The translations under genes were made by a program, and so were the position numbers. Source: Minisyncoccia bacterium (lineage in GTDB: Bacteria; Patescibacteriota; Minisyncoccia; Phycocordibacterales; UBA918). From it: DNA of 64,000 nucleotides. Shown here piece after piece: positions 23,400 to 55,379 of this stretch (its first letter is position 1; each line of letters opens with the position of its first letter). A model generated the notes under the pieces. It was given only the letters and a program-made list of their open reading frames with translations. It ran no database searches and was not told where the DNA came from. The stretch covers positions 13,290-77,289 of the forward strand of contig JBGSPE010000002.1 in the NCBI GenBank assembly GCA_041738755.1, in the 5' to 3' direction.

Positions 23400-24680
23400 T
23401 TAATACTCTCGGAGAGATACCTGAGCATCGAGTCGTCGGATAAGGTCGAGTACCACTGACACCACAATAAGTACTGCTGTTCCTCCGATGGCGAGCGCAG
23501 TGATACCGGTTAGGATTTGCATCCCGACTGGCAATACCGCAACGAACCCGAGGAATAGCGCGCCTACCAAGGTCAGTCTCGTTACCAGGTTTCCAAGATA
23601 CTCTGAAGTACTCGCTCCTGGGCGGATGCCTGGGATAAAGGCTCCGTTTCGTTGGAGATTCTTCGACATTGCATCTGGATCAAAGGTGACCGCAGTGTAG
23701 AAGAAGGTAAAGAGGAAGACCAAGACGAAGTAGGTAATACCGTACGCAACTTGGTTGTTCATGAAGTTCGTAACCACTAGGTTAGCATTTGCCACCCACG
23801 GAAGATTGAAGGCTGAGAGGATATTCAACACCATTTGCGGGAAGAGAATAATCGAAAGAGCAAAGATGATTGGAATAACTCCAGCTTGGTTCAAACGAAG
23901 TGGTAAGTACGAGGTACTTCCTGAGTACGTCTGACCACCGCGACTCTGCTTGGCATAGGTCACTGGCACTGGACGTTCCGCTTCAGTCATAAAGACTACC
24001 GCGTAGATAATACCGAGAGCCACAAACGCAAACCCTAAGTACAGCGGCAACTGTGATGGGTCATAGCTAAAGAGTAGCTGACTGAGAGTTGACGGCAGGG
24101 TAGCGACAATACCAGCAAAGATAATAATCGATACTCCGTTACCAATACCATACTCGGTCGCGAGCTCTCCAATCCACATCAAGAGGACTGAACCGGCAAC
24201 GATGAGGATGACGTTCACAATGAAGTCGAAGGTACTCAAGCCAGCGATTACTCCTTGGCTTTGCAGCAAGGTAAGGAATCCAAATCCTTGCAAGACAGCG
24301 AGAGGAAGCGTAAGCATTCGACTGTACTGTGTAAAGCGAGCTCGTCCCGCTTCTCCTTCCTCTGAGTACATACTCTTCAAGGCAGGTGACATCACGGTCA
24401 TCAACTGCATGATAATCGAGGCCGTAATGAATGGTCCGACTCCCAACATCACAATTGAAAGGTTAGCCAATCCACCTCCTGAGAAAATGTTAAGCAAACC
24501 TAAGAATTGGTTGTTTGAGAAGAATTGTTCAAGGACAGTTTGGTCAACTCCCGGAATTGGAATGGTAGCCAAAGCTCGGAAGATAACAAGAGCGAACAGC
24601 ACGAACAGGACTCGGTTACGAATCGCTGGTTCGGTGAAGATAATTTTTAGTTTTTGAAAGAAAGTCTGCATAAAGCTCAT
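23400..24680 (-). CDS. secY: Preprotein translocase subunit SecY
   Basis: 426 aa, 10 TM helices and conserved SecY segments. Position after rplO. Confidence 0.9.
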   Translation of the reverse strand: MSFMQTFFQKLKIIFTEPAIRNRVLFVLFALVIFRALATIPIPGVDQTVLEQFFSNNQFLGLLNIFSGGGLANLSIVMLGVGPFITASIIMQLMTVMSPALKSMYSEEGEAGRARFTQYSRMLTLPLAVLQGFGFLTLLQSQGVIAGLSTFDFIVNVILIVAGSVLLMWIGELATEYGIGNGVSIIIFAGIVATLPSTLSQLLFSYDPSQLPLYLGFAFVALGIIYAVVFMTEAERPVPVTYAKQSRGGQTYSGSTSYLPLRLNQAGVIPIIFALSIILFPQMVLNILSAFNLPWVANANLVVTNFMNNQVAYGITYFVLVFLFTFFYTAVTFDPDAMSKNLQRNGAFIPGIRPGASTSEYLGNLVTRLTLVGALFLGFVAVLPVGMQILTGITALAIGGTAVLIVVSVVLDLIRRLDAQVSLREY

Positions 24681-24688
24681 CTTACCGC

Positions 24689-25138
24689 TTACTTGACTGT
24701 TCCGCCAGCTGCTTCAATCTTTGTCTTGGCTGAGGCTGATACCTGACACCCTTCGACGACTAGTTTCTTAGTTAATTCACCATTTCCAAGAATCTTGACG
24801 GTCGGAGCCTTCTTTCGCTTAGTGCTGATAGCACCAGCAACGACAAGACTCTTTGGAGAAACGGTATCTCCAGCTCCAAAGTGGGCCTCAAGGACCGAGA
24901 CATTCACCACAACTGGCAATACTCGTTCTGAATTCACGGTTCTTGACCGGTTAGTACCATGTCCTCGAAGCTTTGGAAGCTTCTTGATGAGTTCACGCAT
25001 TTCTGGTCGGGTACTGTTACCAGCTCGAGCAGTCTGCCCTTTATGACCCTTTCCTGAGGTCTTTCCTCGCTTTCCTCCTCGTCCGATACGCTTGGCGGTC
25101 TTCTTTGGAGTTAACGGCTTAAGTTCATGAAGCTGCAT
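24689..25138 (-). CDS. rplO: 50S ribosomal protein L15
   Basis: G/K/R-rich N-terminus (KRIGRGGKRGKTSGKGHKGQ). Confidence 0.9.
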   Translation of the reverse strand: MQLHELKPLTPKKTAKRIGRGGKRGKTSGKGHKGQTARAGNSTRPEMRELIKKLPKLRGHGTNRSRTVNSERVLPVVVNVSVLEAHFGAGDTVSPKSLVVAGAISTKRKKAPTVKILGNGELTKKLVVEGCQVSASAKTKIEAAGGTVK

Positions 25139-25139
25139 A

Positions 25140-25769
25140 CTAGGCTTTCTTTAGTTGCTTGAGCGCTTCGACAGCAGCGCGGGCGTTATTAAGTTTGTTC
25201 TTACTTCGTGAGAAGATTTTTGCGGTGATGTCTTTGACTCCACCCATTTCAAGTACAGTTCGAACTGAAGAACCGGCCACAAGTCCACGACCTGGGGCTG
25301 GCATCATCATTACTTCACTTGATGCATACTTCACGTGTACATCGTGTGGGATGTGACCATCTTTGTTCATTGGTACCACAATCATGTGGCGCTTGGCGTC
25401 ACGTACCGCTTTCTCGATTGCGAGCTGTGTGTCACCGGCCTTACCGATACCAACTCCTACCTTTCCTCGCTTGTCTCCAATCACCATGGCAACTGAGAAA
25501 CTAAAGCGACGTCCACCACCCATCACACGAGTTACGCGTCGGATGCTGATAATTTTTTGTTCAAACTCGGGTCGAACTCGTTCTGTTCGTCCACCGCGGC
25601 GAGGCCGTCGATTTGCTCCACCTCGTCTGTCGTTACTGTTGTTGTTTCGACGTCGTGGTCCTCGATCAGTTGTCTCACCAGCAGGTGCATCGGTCGTAGT
25701 TCCCACTTCTGGGACTACTGCTTCTGACGTAACGTCAGTTGTAGCTTCCGGCTGTTTTGTTTCTGACAT
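25140..25769 (-). CDS. rpsE: 30S ribosomal protein S5 with an N-terminal low-complexity extension
   Basis: RVTRVMGGGRRFSFSVAMVIGDKRGKVGVGIGKA core. Directly abuts rplO with no rpmD (L30) between them. Confidence 0.9.
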   Translation of the reverse strand: MSETKQPEATTDVTSEAVVPEVGTTTDAPAGETTDRGPRRRNNNSNDRRGGANRRPRRGGRTERVRPEFEQKIISIRRVTRVMGGGRRFSFSVAMVIGDKRGKVGVGIGKAGDTQLAIEKAVRDAKRHMIVVPMNKDGHIPHDVHVKYASSEVMMMPAPGRGLVAGSSVRTVLEMGGVKDITAKIFSRSKNKLNNARAAVEALKQLKKA

Positions 25770-52810: not shown

Positions 52811-52882
52811 TCACGGGCAAATTTTTATCATGCTATTGACGAAAAGTCAATCTAATTGTTTTACATAATAACGATTCCGTTA

Positions 52883-52927
52883 AAAACAAAACAACATGGA
52901 CATAAGTCCATGTTGTTTTGTTTTTAA
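52883..52927. terminator. Strong bidirectional terminator downstream of fusA
   Basis: AAAACAAAACAACATGGAC-ATAA-GTCCATGTTGTTTTGTTTTT. Confidence 0.8.
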
Positions 52928-53204
52928 ATTCTATTTTTGATTTACGCGTCGTCTTCAACGTCCTTCAACGCAGATTACTAAGTGTTCTCTTGGCTTCGCC
53001 AATGCGAGCACTAAGTATCTGCTATCCCGGCTCGCGGTTCGTCGTCCTAGGAAATGGACTCCTCACATCGCTCCGCCCCATAAAAGCCGACGATGTTACA
53101 CATCGTCCTCAACGTCTTTCCCTCCTTACAGGAGCAGTACACCTTGTCGCTATTTTTCAAAAGCTCAAAATAGCTGGCAAGGTCCGTAAAAGATGTCTCT
53201 CGGC

Positions 53205-55379
53205 TTACGTCTCGTCTTCCACATCTTTCACGCCTCTCGCCTTTCGAATTTCAGCTGAAACGTTTGGTGGAACCACTTCATAATGGTCGAATTCCATAGT
53301 CATTGAAGCTCGTCCTTGGGTCATTGACCGAAGTGAGTTGGTGTACCCAAAGAGTTCTGAGAGTGGCACCTTAGCCTTGATGATAGTCTTTCCTCCCATT
53401 TCTTCAGTCCCTTCTACTTGTCCTCGCTTACTTGAGATATTTCCGTTGATGTCTCCCATGTATTCTTCCGGTGTTCGGACTTCGATCTTCATGATTGGTT
53501 CGAGGATAACTGCGTTAGCCTTTCGAGCTGCTTCCTTGAAGGCATTGATACCAGCCAGCTTGAAGGCGATTTCACTTGAGTCCACATCGTGGAATGATCC
53601 ATCAAAGAGTTCAACTGACACATCTTCCATCTTGTAGCCCGCAACGAGTCCACGACCCATCGCCTCTTTCGCTCCCTTCATCACCGCTGGGATGTATTCT
53701 CCAGGAATTACACCTCCCTTAATGTTGTTCACGAATTCAAAGTGATCTTCACGAGTGACGTTCTTAGCAACCGTATCGCCTTCTGCCAATGGTTCAATTG
53801 GCTTGATTCGAATCTTCACGTGACCGTACTGACCACGTCCTCCAGATTGTTTGATGTACTTGTACTCAGCTTCAGCCGGTCGTTGAATTGTTTCTCGGTA
53901 CGCAACTTGTGGCTGACCGATGTTGGCTTCAACACCGAACTCTCGCTTCATACGGTCGACGATAATATCGAGGTGAAGCTCACCCATACCAGCAATAATT
54001 GTTTCAAGAGTTTCTTCATCAGTTGATACCTTGAAAGTTGGGTCTTCGTCTGAGAGACGCTTCAACGCAACACCCATCTTTTCTTGGTCGTTCTTTGTCT
54101 TTGGTTCTACTCGCACAGCTACCACTGGTTCTGGGAAGGTAATCGTTTCAAGGAGAATTGGAGCGTTCTCAGCACAGATTGTGTGTGAAGTCTTTACTTC
54201 CTTAATACCTACCGCCGCCGCAATTTCTCCAGCGAATACTTCGTCGATTTCAGTTCGCTTATCAGCCATCAATCGTACAATACGACCAACCCGTTCTTTA
54301 TTTCCAGTTGATGAATTAAGGATGTAACTTCCTGACTTTACTGATCCTGAGTACACTCGGAAGAACGCGAGCTGTCCGACGAACTTATCGTCTTGCAACT
54401 TGAACACCAAGGCAGAGAATGGCTCCTCATCTGTTGGCTTTCGTTCAACCTTGATTTCTGTATCATCTGGGTCTGTTCCCATAGTTGGTGGGAGGTCGAC
54501 CGGTGATGGGAGGTAGTCTACCACCGCGTCGAGAACGAGTTGCACACCAATATTTCGGAGGGCTGTACCCGTCATAATTGGGAAGAGTTCATTGGCAATC
54601 ACTGCCTTTCGAAGCGTCTTCTTAAGATCTTCGAGAGTTGGTTCCTGACCAGCAAGATAGGCTTCCATCAACACGTCATCGTGTTCAACCACTCGTTCAA
54701 TAAGTTCAGCTCGTCGAATTTGTGCTTCTTCAAGAAGGTCGGCTGGGATTTCTTCTTCAGTTACTTCCATACCCATTTCACCACCAAAGCGGTAGGCCTT
54801 CATCTGCACGAGGTCAACGACACCCTTCATGGTATCTTCAGCACCAATTGGGATTTGGATACGAACGGCCTTCTTTGAAAGTCGGTCTTCGATAGATTTT
54901 ACTGAAGCGTCAAAGTCAGCACCGAGTTTATCCATCTTATTCACGAAACAGATACGTGGCACATTGGCCTCGTCAGCATACCCCCAGTTGGTTTCAGTTT
55001 GTGGTTCTACTCCGGCAGCACCGTCGAATACCACAACTGCACCATCAAGCACACGCATTGATCGCTTTACTTCTGCAGTAAAGTCGATGTGTCCTGGCGT
55101 ATCAATGATGTTAAAGGTGTACATCAAACTCTTGTCCTTGCGGTCTTCAACCATGGTCTTTGACCAGTTACAAGAGATAGCAGCAGCGGTAATAGTAATA
55201 CCTCGCTCTCGTTCTTGCTCCATCCAGTCAGTGACCGTTGCACCATCGTGCACTTCACCAATTTTGTGACTCATTCCGGTGTAGAAAAGCACGCGTTCTG
55301 AAGTGGTAGTTTTACCAGCATCTACGTGAGCGACGATACCGAAGTTACGGAGTCTATCGAGGGGAAATTCTCGGGCCAT
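53205..55379 (-). CDS. fusA: Elongation factor G
   Basis: 724 aa. G-domain motifs ([21 protein letters not shown]), domains II-V, and the GGGQ-like loop. Confidence 0.95.

Follow-up and report, generated by a model that had tools for sequence, protein, structure and literature searches.

In E. coli S8 autoregulates the spc operon through an operator that mimics helix 21 of 16S rRNA and lies at the beginning of the rplE cistron, and the S10 leader mediates attenuation by L4; other ribosomal protein leaders are catalogued in Rfam. Archaea such as Methanococcus vannielii carry the order S12-S7-EF-2-EF-1alpha-S10 and a separate L3-L4-L23-L2-S19… cluster. In bacteria the canonical str-S10-spc(-alpha) cluster is documented to decay when a few genes insert between operons, which then become disconnected (Brandis 2021, PMC8046335).

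Here we analyze a 64-kb stretch of DNA (the window) in which the cluster reads, on the minus strand, fusA / tuf-rpsJ / rplC-rplD-rplW-rplB / rpsS…rplE / rpsN…secY (Table 1). Ribosomal protein identities were assigned by reading translations, and precomputed Pfam labels of the homologous genes of a congener (L081) concur. The gaps measure 3676 nt at fusA|tuf, 2712 nt at rpsJ|rplC, 3465 nt at rplB|rpsS and 8228 nt at rplE|rpsN; this four-way break was reported in a preliminary description whose gene order, gap sizes and 194-nt rplW-rplB spacer all match exactly. Gene order inside the fragments is identical to that of E. coli and Bacillus, and the general process is that of the published decay, in which the chain of operons is first interrupted by small insertions and may later come apart fully. 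However, each break interrupts a classical operon rather than separating two of them (str at fusA|tuf, S10 at rpsJ|rplC and rplB|rpsS, spc at rplE|rpsN), rpsQ|rplN, where S10 classically meets spc, is tight here at 4-6 nt, and the breaks are fixed clade-wide, each with a new predicted promoter and leader.

The cluster is also split further than the preliminary description stated, with both the upstream side of fusA and the downstream side of secY altered. Relative to the canonical cluster, this neighborhood has already lost rpsL-rpsG and the alpha-operon genes. DUF5715 and gdh occupy the place of rpsL-rpsG upstream of fusA; gdh is likewise found there in L021 and L039, and the distant relatives L073 and L079 retain rpsL-rpsG. 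Downstream of secY a cmk-like gene in opposite orientation is followed by gmk-adk-map-ndk, with none of infA, rpmJ, rpsM or later genes after secY in the window, and rpmD is absent from the rpsN…secY unit. As in the archaeal arrangement, tuf stays with rpsJ and rplC heads a new unit, but in the window fusA is separated from tuf as well. This likeness is almost certainly convergent; L079 keeps rpsJ and rplC 80 nt apart.

Table 1. Coordinates of annotated and predicted features of the window.
Feature	Position	Strand	Remarks
Hairpin 3' of secY	23194-23227		terminator-like
Fragment 5	23400..27265	-	rpsN-rpsH-rplF-rplR-rpsE-rplO-secY; translations; junctions tight in relatives
secY	23400-24680	-	
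rpsN	27080-27265	-	
rpsN leader hairpin	27282..27330	-	GUCA...UGAUAC core; putative S8 operator
rpsN operon promoter-like site	27389..27416	-	TTGCTA-N17(TG)-TATTGT
5-gene cassette, insert 1	27893..33024	+	recent acquisition
285-aa and 186-aa ORFs, insert 1	33124..34665	+	
Predicted terminator between these ORFs	34003-34029		
172-aa ORF	34871..35389	-	directly 3' of rplE; also in congener, 53% aa
172-aa ORF promoter-like site	35408-35436		
Hairpin after rplE	35445..35473		predicted bidirectional terminator
Fragment 4	35494..39052	-	rpsS-rplV-rpsC-rplP-rpmC-rpsQ-rplN-rplX-rplE; translations; junctions tight in relatives
rplE	35494-36042	-	
rpsS	38726-39052	-	
rpsS promoter and leader region	39074..39412	-	predicted
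rpsS leader proximal element	39074-39154	-	
rpsS leader hairpin	39230-39256	-	terminator-like
rpsS leader covarying hairpin	39247-39312	-	loop GG-CCGUUA-CC
rpsS promoter	39385-39412	-	predicted
147-aa protein	39809..40252	+	four-TM membrane protein; missing from L081
DUF2103-like 104-aa protein	40327..40641	+	Pfam; conserved resident of rplB|rpsS gap
94-aa ORF and 400-aa protein	40649..42207	-	400-aa protein: signal/PG_binding_1/acidic DUF4398
Hairpin at rplB end	42475..42520		20-bp palindromic; predicted terminator
Fragment 3	42518..45252	-	rplC-rplD-rplW-(194 nt)-rplB
rplB	42518-43378	-	
rplW-rplB spacer hairpin	43388-43426	-	UUAGGAAGAUAAGG..CCACUAUUUUCUAACC; conserved
rplW-rplB spacer distal element	43477-43567	-	
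rplC	44638-45252	-	
rplC leader core	45308-45422	-	long hairpin, then U-rich tail
rplC promoter	45429-45456	-	predicted; TTGCAA-16-TATAGT with TG
179-aa ORF promoter-like site	45495-45522		
179-aa ORF	45555..46151	+	missing from L081
179-aa ORF terminator	46119-46151		predicted
48-aa ORF terminator	46591-46627	-	predicted
48-aa ORF	46646-46792	-	small, tail-anchored; conserved, 14 loci
244-aa protein	46988..47722	-	low-GC membrane protein
rpsJ terminator	47796..47826	-	predicted
Fragment 2	47965..49729	-	tuf-rpsJ, leader core and predicted promoter
rpsJ	47965-48312	-	
tuf	48332-49528	-	
tuf leader core	49551-49697	-	
tuf promoter	49702-49729	-	predicted; TTGCAA-N16-TACTAT
Tandem ~540-nt hairpin-rich repeats	50015-50283, 51697-52750		around IS110-like gene
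IS110-like transposase gene	50476-51609	-	Pfam PF02371
Hairpin downstream of fusA	53089-53107		terminator-like
Fragment 1	53205..55379	-	fusA alone

We consider it likely that this locus reflects a clade-wide re-partition of str-S10-spc into autonomous operons. An ancestor of the clade would have divided the array into at least five collinear units, the five fragments named above, each closing with an intrinsic terminator; the units after fusA would open with a sigma-70-like promoter and, behind it, a structured 5′ leader conserved in the lineage. Each spacer would extend from a terminator to the promoter that follows. Insertions there would leave ribosomal protein expression undisturbed, and the spacers would therefore be permissive sites at which genes accumulate, persist or get lost.

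The window, itself from a Paceibacteria (Patescibacteria/CPR) genome, was compared with 80 species-level loci of Paceibacteria with rplB 64-88 % identical to that of the window, a junction being called open when the gap reaches 250 nt. Only 4 of 22 junctions are expanded in these loci, these being the junctions that are broken in the window as well: fusA|tuf in 29/31, rpsJ|rplC in 51/53, rplB|rpsS in 47/47 and rplE|rpsN in 26/28 (93-100 %). The other 18 are tight, with median gaps of at most 64 nt each. Since the same breakpoints are open in nearly all related genomes, the split is, judged by sequence comparison, ancestral to the clade.

The preliminary description had instead attributed the breaks to repeated invasion, whereby a contiguous super-operon in the window genome was entered four separate times and the fragments then evolved promoters. 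The deviant GC3 of part of insert 1 (rplE|rpsN) and of the IS110-like gene, the occurrence of the ABC cassette elsewhere beside a transposase and the lack of several segments in L081 speak for this reading. It is nevertheless very improbable, and as to the breakpoints largely refuted, given that the junctions are shared by the relatives together with conserved promoters and leaders, that gaps holding no mapped gene still span 140-420 nt, room for a leader (e.g. L058, L065, L049, L056), and that several gap genes are vertically inherited. Least credible of all, to the point of being negligible, is an assembly artifact in which the inserts would be chimeric joins. In its favor, the genome is a MAG, and an independent short-read contig breaks inside the repeats that surround the IS110-like gene, so that repeat copy number is uncertain. 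However, independent Logan contigs span rpsH-island-rplE (L085) and rplC-insert 3-rpsJ (L089), excluding chimerism for inserts 1 and 3; L081 and L083, from other samples, have the same general architecture and so exclude chimerism for it, and 80 other genomes share the breakpoints.

Consistent with autonomous operons, promoter-like sites with at least 9 of 12 matches occur upstream of fusA (17/26 loci), rplC (46/70), rpsS (33/48) and rpsN (20/29), compared to 9/101 controls. At the tuf head the site is conserved but weaker, with at least 9 matches in 14/49 loci when scored against the E. coli consensus. The expectation that each fragment gained its own promoter is thus supported at four of five heads, with tuf weaker. 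Promoters had been read upstream of rpsN, rplB and rplC in particular; the first and last hold up, but rplB, at 9/78 loci, is at control level, and the rplW-rplB spacer carries a conserved folded element, not a conserved promoter. As a class, promoter-like hexamers of the window are near chance at 23-40 kb (17 versus 16.0±4.1 expected) and in modest excess at 38.5-56.5 kb (34 versus 23.4±4.2); we take them to acquire meaning only via conservation in relatives.

Terminator-like hairpins lie within 130 nt 3′ of fusA in 26/32 loci, rpsJ in 35/53, rplB in 65/78 and rplE in 30/41, that is at 66-83 % of fragment ends, compared to 3 % of intragenic controls (15/456). They are in excess in the window too (25 versus 16.9±4.1 expected at 23-40 kb; 40 versus 16.5±4.0 at 38.5-56.5 kb), which agrees with the earlier observation of intrinsic terminators around the inserts. 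Gap genes in the relatives are mostly co-directional at rpsJ|rplC (60:18) and fusA|tuf (24:10); partial read-through and longer transcripts are therefore possible.

All fragments after fusA carry a conserved structured 5′ leader, and the leaders of tuf, rplC, rpsS and rpsN have no match among Rfam 15 families. Counted by simple patterns and MAFFT alignments, the tuf motif GUUCUCGCGCC is found in 38/49 loci (12/16 pairs compensatory), the rplC motif ACCAAUGGGCA in 62/72 (10/14 pairs) and the rpsN motif in 22/29 (5/8 pairs). Covariation is strong in the rpsS hairpin, with 91 % of cells paired, double changes in 14/17 pairs and 0/500 shuffles as high; searched against 1.12 Mb, the rpsS leader CM R1 matched in 35 sources, exactly once in each locus on the sense strand and in every case 5′ of rpsS. 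In a table sorted by rplB identity, which is not a tree, leaders reach down to ~69 %, and most leader motifs are missing from the three most distant loci.

Most likely these leaders serve as autogenous operators for a ribosomal protein whose gene lies downstream. A recognizable rRNA mimic is found in the rpsN leader only, whose core is the GUCA/UGAUAC of E. coli 16S helix 21 (16S sequence verified), flanked by helices as in the E. coli S8 operator, and rpsH (S8) is the second gene downstream. Because the leader copies this S8-site core, S8 control appears to have shifted to the head of the new rpsN operon: the putative operator lies in the rpsN 5′ UTR rather than at rplE, which here is part of another operon. 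In the rplC and rpsS leaders the 3′ end is a hairpin with a U-tract, and so they look like attenuators. Like the E. coli S10 leader, the rplC leader precedes an operon encoding L4 and has the layout of a protein-controlled attenuator, but it has no sequence or Rfam match and the operon begins at rplC rather than rpsJ.

Among relatives the gaps at the four junctions measure from 80 nt up to 6.9 kb, 179 of the 281 junction ORFs that reach 100 aa are confined to a single locus, and L081 (~84-87 % nt identity) departs by 0.6-6.5 kb at every shared junction. The four junctions are thus sites of gene gain and loss whose contents turn over fast, which transcriptional insulation may explain. Residents are roughly nested by rplB identity in the same identity-sorted table, L068 being an exception: the DUF2103-like gene (29 loci, always on the opposite strand) extends mostly to ~74 % with one outlier at 70 %, while the peptidoglycan-binding protein gene, present with the 94-aa ORF in the 14 closest loci, and the 48-aa ORF occur only at 80 % or above. 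These three residents are vertically inherited, an outcome that the preliminary description had itself listed as counting against its reading, and which does so in part. In addition, the 172-aa ORF is shared with the congener and the IS110-like gene is syntenic in L008. Other segments were recently acquired. The DUF2103-like protein has 502 homologues, 68-87 % identical among the 120 listed, and a fold search with it gave no informative match.

The GC-rich cassette is a recent addition to the window genome, and so, it appears, are the IS110-like element with its tandem repeats and single ORFs. The cassette encodes 216-aa and 342-aa coiled-coil-like proteins, an SBP(NMT1)-OmpA fusion, an ABC permease and an ABC ATPase (Pfam). 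The earlier view of recently acquired foreign DNA fits it well: GC3 is 0.64-0.68 in 3/5 genes, L081 and L082 lack it, and it is collinear with positions 7240-12248 of L086 (42-72 % aa), where an rve transposase adjoins and the context is unrelated. Relative to L081, the 244-aa protein gene is inserted precisely 3′ of the rpsJ terminator; the 285-aa and 186-aa ORFs had no family match. Other generalizations about the inserts stand in part. Some 9-10 of ~16 inserted ORFs run opposite to the ribosomal protein genes, a majority owed mostly to insert 1. GC3 (window median 0.43) is high, 0.64-0.68, at 28577-32209 and in the IS110-like gene, and low, 0.22-0.24, at 40649-40933 and 46988-47851, but the rest is indistinguishable from background.

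The gaps could alternatively be active integration hot-spots, at which a site-specific mechanism, for example IS110-type recombinases or small REP/MITE-like palindromic elements recognizing sequences at operon ends, would bring in DNA time and again. We regard this as unlikely. The IS110-like gene with its tandem derivative repeats lies in the fusA|tuf gap of the window, with a syntenic copy in L008 (80 % aa), and a structured repeat has two window sites and 19 further copies in relatives, about two thirds near ribosomal protein gene ends. However, the IS110-like gene is single-copy in the window, neither a recombinase nor att-like direct repeats were found at the boundaries of the other window-specific segments, tRNA genes are absent, and the junctions hold unrelated gene families without shared mobility genes.

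The structured repeat itself (CTTACAG…CTGTACACCTTG…CAAGG…) lies at 42297-42354 and 53125-53182, and its copies near mapped ribosomal protein gene ends are within ~130 nt of them.

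The S10-spc block is a textbook case of gene order frozen by selection, and the approach of placing uncultured bacteria by 16 syntenic ribosomal proteins on one scaffold rests on it. In the window, the layout of the block was established from the ORF listing and translation, with ribosomal protein (r-protein) genes named by their translations; precomputed Pfam labels of the homologues on a congener contig (L081) give the same identities. The canonical str-S10-spc order is kept, and the gene order, gap sizes and 194-nt rplW-rplB spacer given in the preliminary description are matched exactly. 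The contiguity of a super-operon, with gaps of tens of nucleotides within str, S10 and spc, is lost at four places, where the gaps measure 2.7-8.2 kb. The four gaps had been recognized earlier; dispersal is greater than was then described. DUF5715 on the opposite strand and gdh stand 5′ of fusA instead of rpsG and rpsL, rpmD is missing between rpsE and rplO, and beyond secY a cmk-like gene on the opposite strand is followed by gmk-adk-map-ndk; infA, rpmJ and the alpha-operon genes do not follow secY, adk or map in the window.

Features of the window (inserts are numbered from the rpsN/rplE gap to the tuf/fusA gap)
Feature	Position	Strand	Remark
smpB	354-800		
tmRNA gene	1542-1935		97 bits
infC-rpmI-rplT	12638-13949		
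rpmI	~13387-13578		63 aa
secY-rplO-rpsE-rplR-rplF-rpsH-rpsN	23400-27265	-	translations
rpsE	25140-25769	-	209 aa
rpsN/rplE gap (insert 1)			8228 nt
Segment absent from L081	27.4-34.8 kb		almost all of it absent
rplE…rpsS	35494-39052	-	translations
rpsC	37672-38391	-	
rpsS	38726-39052	-	
rpsS-proximal element	39074-39154		
rpsS/rplB gap (insert 2)			3465 nt
Segment absent from L081	39416-40328		147-aa membrane protein
DUF2103-like gene	40327-40641	+	
Small structured repeat	42297-42354; 53125-53182	+	
rplB, 194-nt spacer, rplW-rplD-rplC	42518-45252	-	translations
rplC/rpsJ gap (insert 3)			2712 nt
Segment absent from L081	45426-46585		179-aa ORF with own predicted promoter and terminator
48-aa ORF	46646-46792	-	
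Segment absent from L081	46966-47795		244-aa low-GC membrane protein
rpsJ-tuf	47965-49528	-	translations
tuf/fusA gap (insert 4)			3676 nt
Y units	50015-50283; 51697-51800 (partial); 51987-52260; 52528-52750		
IS110-like gene	50476-51609	-	
X units	51820-51986; 52360-52526		
fusA	53205-55379	-	translations
Promoter-like sites near fusA start	55484-55512; 55383-55410		
ORF outside the cluster	60943-62004	+	353 aa, no Pfam match

Scanning the rplB product against one genome per species gave 80 loci, all from Patescibacteria MAGs labelled Paceibacteria, Parcubacteria, Kaiserbacteria or Nomurabacteria, with rplB 64-88% identical. An exact-protein look-up added the congener contig (~84-87% nucleotide identity) and short same-strain contigs; in protein searches the best 120 matches were all close relatives. 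When all window proteins were placed on the 80 loci by tblastn, exactly 4 of 22 junctions were found to be expanded across relatives, the same four as in the window. Related genomes had been expected to show these junctions uninterrupted; instead, at least 250 nt separate fusA from tuf in 29 of 31 loci (median 1.0 kb), rpsJ from rplC in 51 of 53 (median 2.1 kb, maximum 6.4 kb), rplB from rpsS in 47 of 47 (minimum 263 nt, maximum 6.9 kb) and rplE from rpsN in 26 of 28 (maximum 4.0 kb). The window's four gaps are open in 93-100% of relatives, and the remaining 18 junctions have a median gap of at most 64 nt.

The four breakpoints are ancestral to the clade. Since the same junctions are expanded in relatives, the split is a clade trait, deepened stepwise, and not the outcome of recent invasions of the window genome; the repeated invasion proposed in the preliminary description holds for some of the gap contents and not for the breaks themselves. 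The most distant loci keep older states: the rpsJ-rplC spacing is 80 nt in L079, and rpsL-rpsG is retained before fusA only in the distant L073 and L079, with gdh at that place in the window, L021 and L039. The rplB/rpsS and rplE/rpsN breaks seem to be the oldest. Chimeric assembly does not explain inserts 1 and 3, as independent Logan contigs (SRR28170465) span rpsH-island-rplE (L085) and rplC-insert 3-rpsJ (L089).

Conserved structured RNA leaders lie within predicted 5′ UTRs of r-protein operons across species. Their secondary structures are backed by covariation upstream of rpsS, rplC, tuf and rpsN; an rplB-proximal element shows weak covariation (2 of 10 pairs). The rpsS leader is a two-helix hairpin with a nearly invariant apical loop, GG-CCGUUA-CC, followed by a further hairpin and a U-tract, and compensatory changes occur in 15 of its 17 pairs (RNAalifold). 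Searched through 1.12 Mb, its covariance model matched 35 sources, once per locus on the sense strand and in each case upstream of rpsS, with no match elsewhere. In the alignment derived from this model 91% of cells pair, with double changes in 14 of 17 pairs; none of 500 shuffles reached the observed pairing, and slid controls were 43-63% paired. The loop GCCGUUACC is complementary, over a single 9-mer, to GGUAACGGC, which we take to be a conserved 16S segment.

The rplC leader, AAGACCUAYGU…ACCAAUGGGCA… with a 12-bp hairpin ending in UUUGU, has its motif in 62 of 72 loci (compensatory changes in 10 of 14 pairs), and that of tuf, built of the blocks GCUCUUUCACAC, GUUCUCGCGCC and GUGUGCGGU, in 38 of 49 (12 of 16 pairs). 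The rpsN leader is a hairpin whose 5′ half carries GUCA and whose 3′ half carries UGAUAC; it is found in 22 of 29 loci (5 of 8 pairs). The same GUCA/UGAUAC core is shared by E. coli 16S helix 21 (…AAGUCAGAUG…CAUCUGAUACUGG…; 16S sequence verified). S8 binds 16S rRNA at this helix, which is imitated by the operator of the E. coli spc operon. The likeness of the rpsN leader to the S8 core is a resemblance at the sequence level only, by which it may be regarded as a putative S8 operator. The rplW-rplB spacer holds a hairpin, UUAGGAAGAUAAGG…CCACUAUUUUCUAACC, in 17 loci. Neither this hairpin nor any leader element matched Rfam 15 at the gathering threshold, and relaxed scans of four leader/insert regions returned chance matches only and no real family.

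A second leader-like module was seen directly before the start codons of differing r-protein genes in differing genomes: before rpsS in L001, L018, L020, L027, L032, L047 and L057, before rpsN in L001, and in the rplW-rplB spacer in L060. It consists of a hairpin such as CCAGGAAUUUGCCC…GGGCAAAUUCGG, then AAAUUCnnAAUAGUCGCUACGCUCCUUU, with a tail carrying an anti-Shine-Dalgarno-like CUCCUU. The rpsS-proximal element of the window differs from it and is common to L021.

A terminator-like hairpin with a T-run lies within 130 nt after fusA in 81% of loci, after rpsJ in 66%, after rplB in 83% and after rplE in 73%, compared with 3% of intragenic control windows under the same criterion. Promoter-like sites (9 or more of 12 positions matching the consensus) were seen upstream of fusA, rplC, rpsS and rpsN in 65-69% of loci versus 9% of controls; upstream of tuf only 14 of 49 loci reach this threshold, with a conserved TTGCAA…TACTAT pair still visible. 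Upstream of rplB there is no enrichment (12% of loci, the control level), and a conserved promoter is absent from the rplW-rplB spacer among related loci. Promoters had been read earlier upstream of rpsN, rplC and rplB; enrichment in relatives bears out the first two and not the third. The start codons of fusA and of the divergent DUF5715 gene (+) are only 26 nt apart (55379-55406), and thus the fusA promoter must sit within neighbouring coding sequence; two promoter-like sites were seen near the fusA start. In the window, -10 boxes are predicted at 27389 (rpsN), 39385 (rpsS), 45429 (rplC) and 49702 (tuf), and terminators at 35445-35473 (rplE), 42475-42520 (rplB), 47796-47826 (rpsJ) and 53089-53107 (fusA). 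Judged by these predicted signals, all the fragments resemble autonomous operons.

In the best-supported model, the ancestral array split into self-contained operons, each with its own promoter, a probable autogenous leader and a terminator, and genes would have been accepted and lost without cost in the spacers between a terminator and the next promoter. Such spacers would explain both the fixed positions and the fast turnover; the promoters, leaders and terminators that supply this mechanism are still predictions. We put at about an even chance the wider proposition that a class-level CPR clade rebuilt its core r-protein control, through S10/spc fission at four fixed points, at least four undescribed leaders (tuf, rplC, rpsS and rpsN), the rplB-proximal element and an S8 operator relocated to rpsN, with the insulated spacers as preferred landing sites for new genes.

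The general pattern in Gammaproteobacteria and Bacilli is likewise that a few genes are inserted first and the operon is disconnected afterwards (PMC8046335). Here, by contrast, the breaks fall within the classical S10, spc and str operons, the classical S10-spc boundary being tight, and they are accompanied by new leaders. No description of split S10/spc operons or of CPR r-protein leaders was found in the limited literature searched, which is absence of evidence only. Fixed breaks inside operons, holding as much as 8 kb of variable DNA, are tolerated in a large CPR clade. This shows that constraint applies to the local sub-operons and the way they are regulated, and not to the array as a whole; it is also a warning that marker sets taken from short contigs of this clade will come out fragmented. 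The leaders provide several well-supported candidate cis-regulatory RNAs in organisms with almost no known regulation, and the gaps offer natural "safe-harbour" sites at which the highly conserved surroundings allow gains and losses of genes to be dated.

In relatives, just two gene families are widespread in the gaps, both confined to the rplB/rpsS gap: a DUF2103-like protein and PGb, a 400-aa signal-peptide/PG_binding_1/acidic DUF4398 protein present in the 14 closest loci. In all 29 loci that encode it, the DUF2103-like protein (104-105 aa) is read from the opposite strand, divergently from the rpsS promoter region. The best 120 of its 502 homologues are 68-87% identical, so it evolves slowly; in conservation it outdoes several r-proteins (68-87% among the matches listed and 49-71% across the 29 loci, versus 34-72% for rplW). 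Its confident predicted model has no PDB match, and some connection with the ribosome or with translation can only be guessed from where the gene lies. Between rpsJ and rplC, and always there, L081 and the 14 closest loci carry a tail-anchored 48-aa ORF (MQTNLQPDASAKSDIEMTFSSENAWMVQCLSLATLGLLTYLHIAPMVA), whose C-terminus is a hydrophobic helix and which has a terminator of its own; a 60-aa ORF cut-off had overlooked it. Ordered by rplB identity, a proxy for phylogeny and not a tree, these features are roughly nested: leaders extend down to ~69%, the DUF2103-like gene is found mostly from 74% upwards, a single outlier being at 70%, and PGb and the 48-aa ORF occur only at 80% or above.

Most other gap content turns over quickly. 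Among the 281 junction ORFs that reach 100 aa, 179 occur in one locus only, including all 33 at rplE/rpsN. Most inserted ORFs have no Pfam or NCBIfam family; further junction genes in relatives, labelled by reading the sequences and not by family scans, encode secreted Cys-rich proteins, a PhoH/PIN-like ATPase and methyltransferase-like proteins. The preliminary description had considered that the intergenic genes might be inherited core genes. This applies to the DUF2103-like gene, PGb, the 48-aa ORF and a 172-aa minus-strand ORF directly after rplE, which are shared with relatives and so are not islands absent from them; it does not apply to the four segments that L081 lacks. One of these (46966-47795) fills precisely the interval from the rpsJ terminator to the next conserved sequence. 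No target-site duplications are visible at segment boundaries in the comparison with L081. Two alternative gene models were rejected: a 221-aa ORF (45523-46188) in favour of the 179-aa frame, on odd GC by codon position, an internal terminator and an independent gene call, and a TTG start (287-aa ORF) that overlaps the rpsJ terminator, the 244-aa form being called independently.

The core of insert 1 is a five-gene cassette encoding two coiled-coil-like proteins, an SBP-OmpA fusion, a permease and an ATPase. There is good evidence that it is a recent horizontal gain, as GC3 is 0.64-0.68 in three of the five genes (window median 0.43) and the same cassette, collinear at 42-72% amino acid identity, is found on a 960-kb contig, next to an rve transposase and in non-ribosomal surroundings. 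Deviant GC had been claimed for most inserted genes; in the GC profile it holds for only six inserted ORFs at GC3 |z|>2 (five without an overlapping alternative call, 28382-29542), the others being background-like. Genes of atypical composition are not confined to the junctions, since the 353-aa ORF outside the cluster also deviates (GC3 0.63, z = 2.3).

Dedicated site-specific integration at the gaps is a minor possibility beside ancestral fission. It would draw on the IS110-like gene of insert 4 and on REP-like repeats; among island hallmarks, that gene was the only candidate integrase or recombinase found, and no tRNAs or boundary repeats were found. The gene matched only PF02371 (E=4.9e-5, 24.1 bits against a cut-off of 21.3), the N-terminal DEDD domain (PF01548) not being detected with Pfam, and a syntenic copy in L008 is 80% identical in amino acids. 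It is embedded in tandem hairpin-rich repeats of ~540 nt each (within 50015-52750), every unit a string of hairpins. The independent contig carrying it ends inside the repeats, so their copy number is uncertain. Part of the Y unit is similar to the sequence immediately 5′ of the transposase gene, so the ~540-nt units may be transposase-less derivatives or copies of a guide/bridge-RNA-encoding end.

A small structured repeat, CTTACAGnnnCTGTACACCTTGTCG…variable hairpin…CGACAAGGTCTTGCGAAAG, occurs twice in the window and in 19 further copies in related loci (e.g. L016:9750, L041:4057, L059:3910, L062:4235 and L063:1996), with covarying arms (CACCTTG/CAAGGTG versus CAGGTTG/CAACCTC). About two thirds of the copies in relatives lie within ~130 nt of a mapped r-protein gene end; sites include those after fusA, after rplB, before rpsS and in the rplW-rplB spacer. 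In appearance it is like REP or MITE elements, and it may serve as a terminator module or as a target for recombination.

Low-complexity extensions were seen in three r-proteins of the window: ~45 N-terminal residues rich in T, R and G in rpsE, a Lys/Ala-rich C-terminal tail in rpsS and a C-terminal tail in rpsC. Outside the cluster, tmRNA is the only Rfam family of the whole window at the gathering threshold, and its gene adjoins smpB; the infC-rpmI-rplT operon is of the ordinary type, its rpmI falling below the ORF cut-off.
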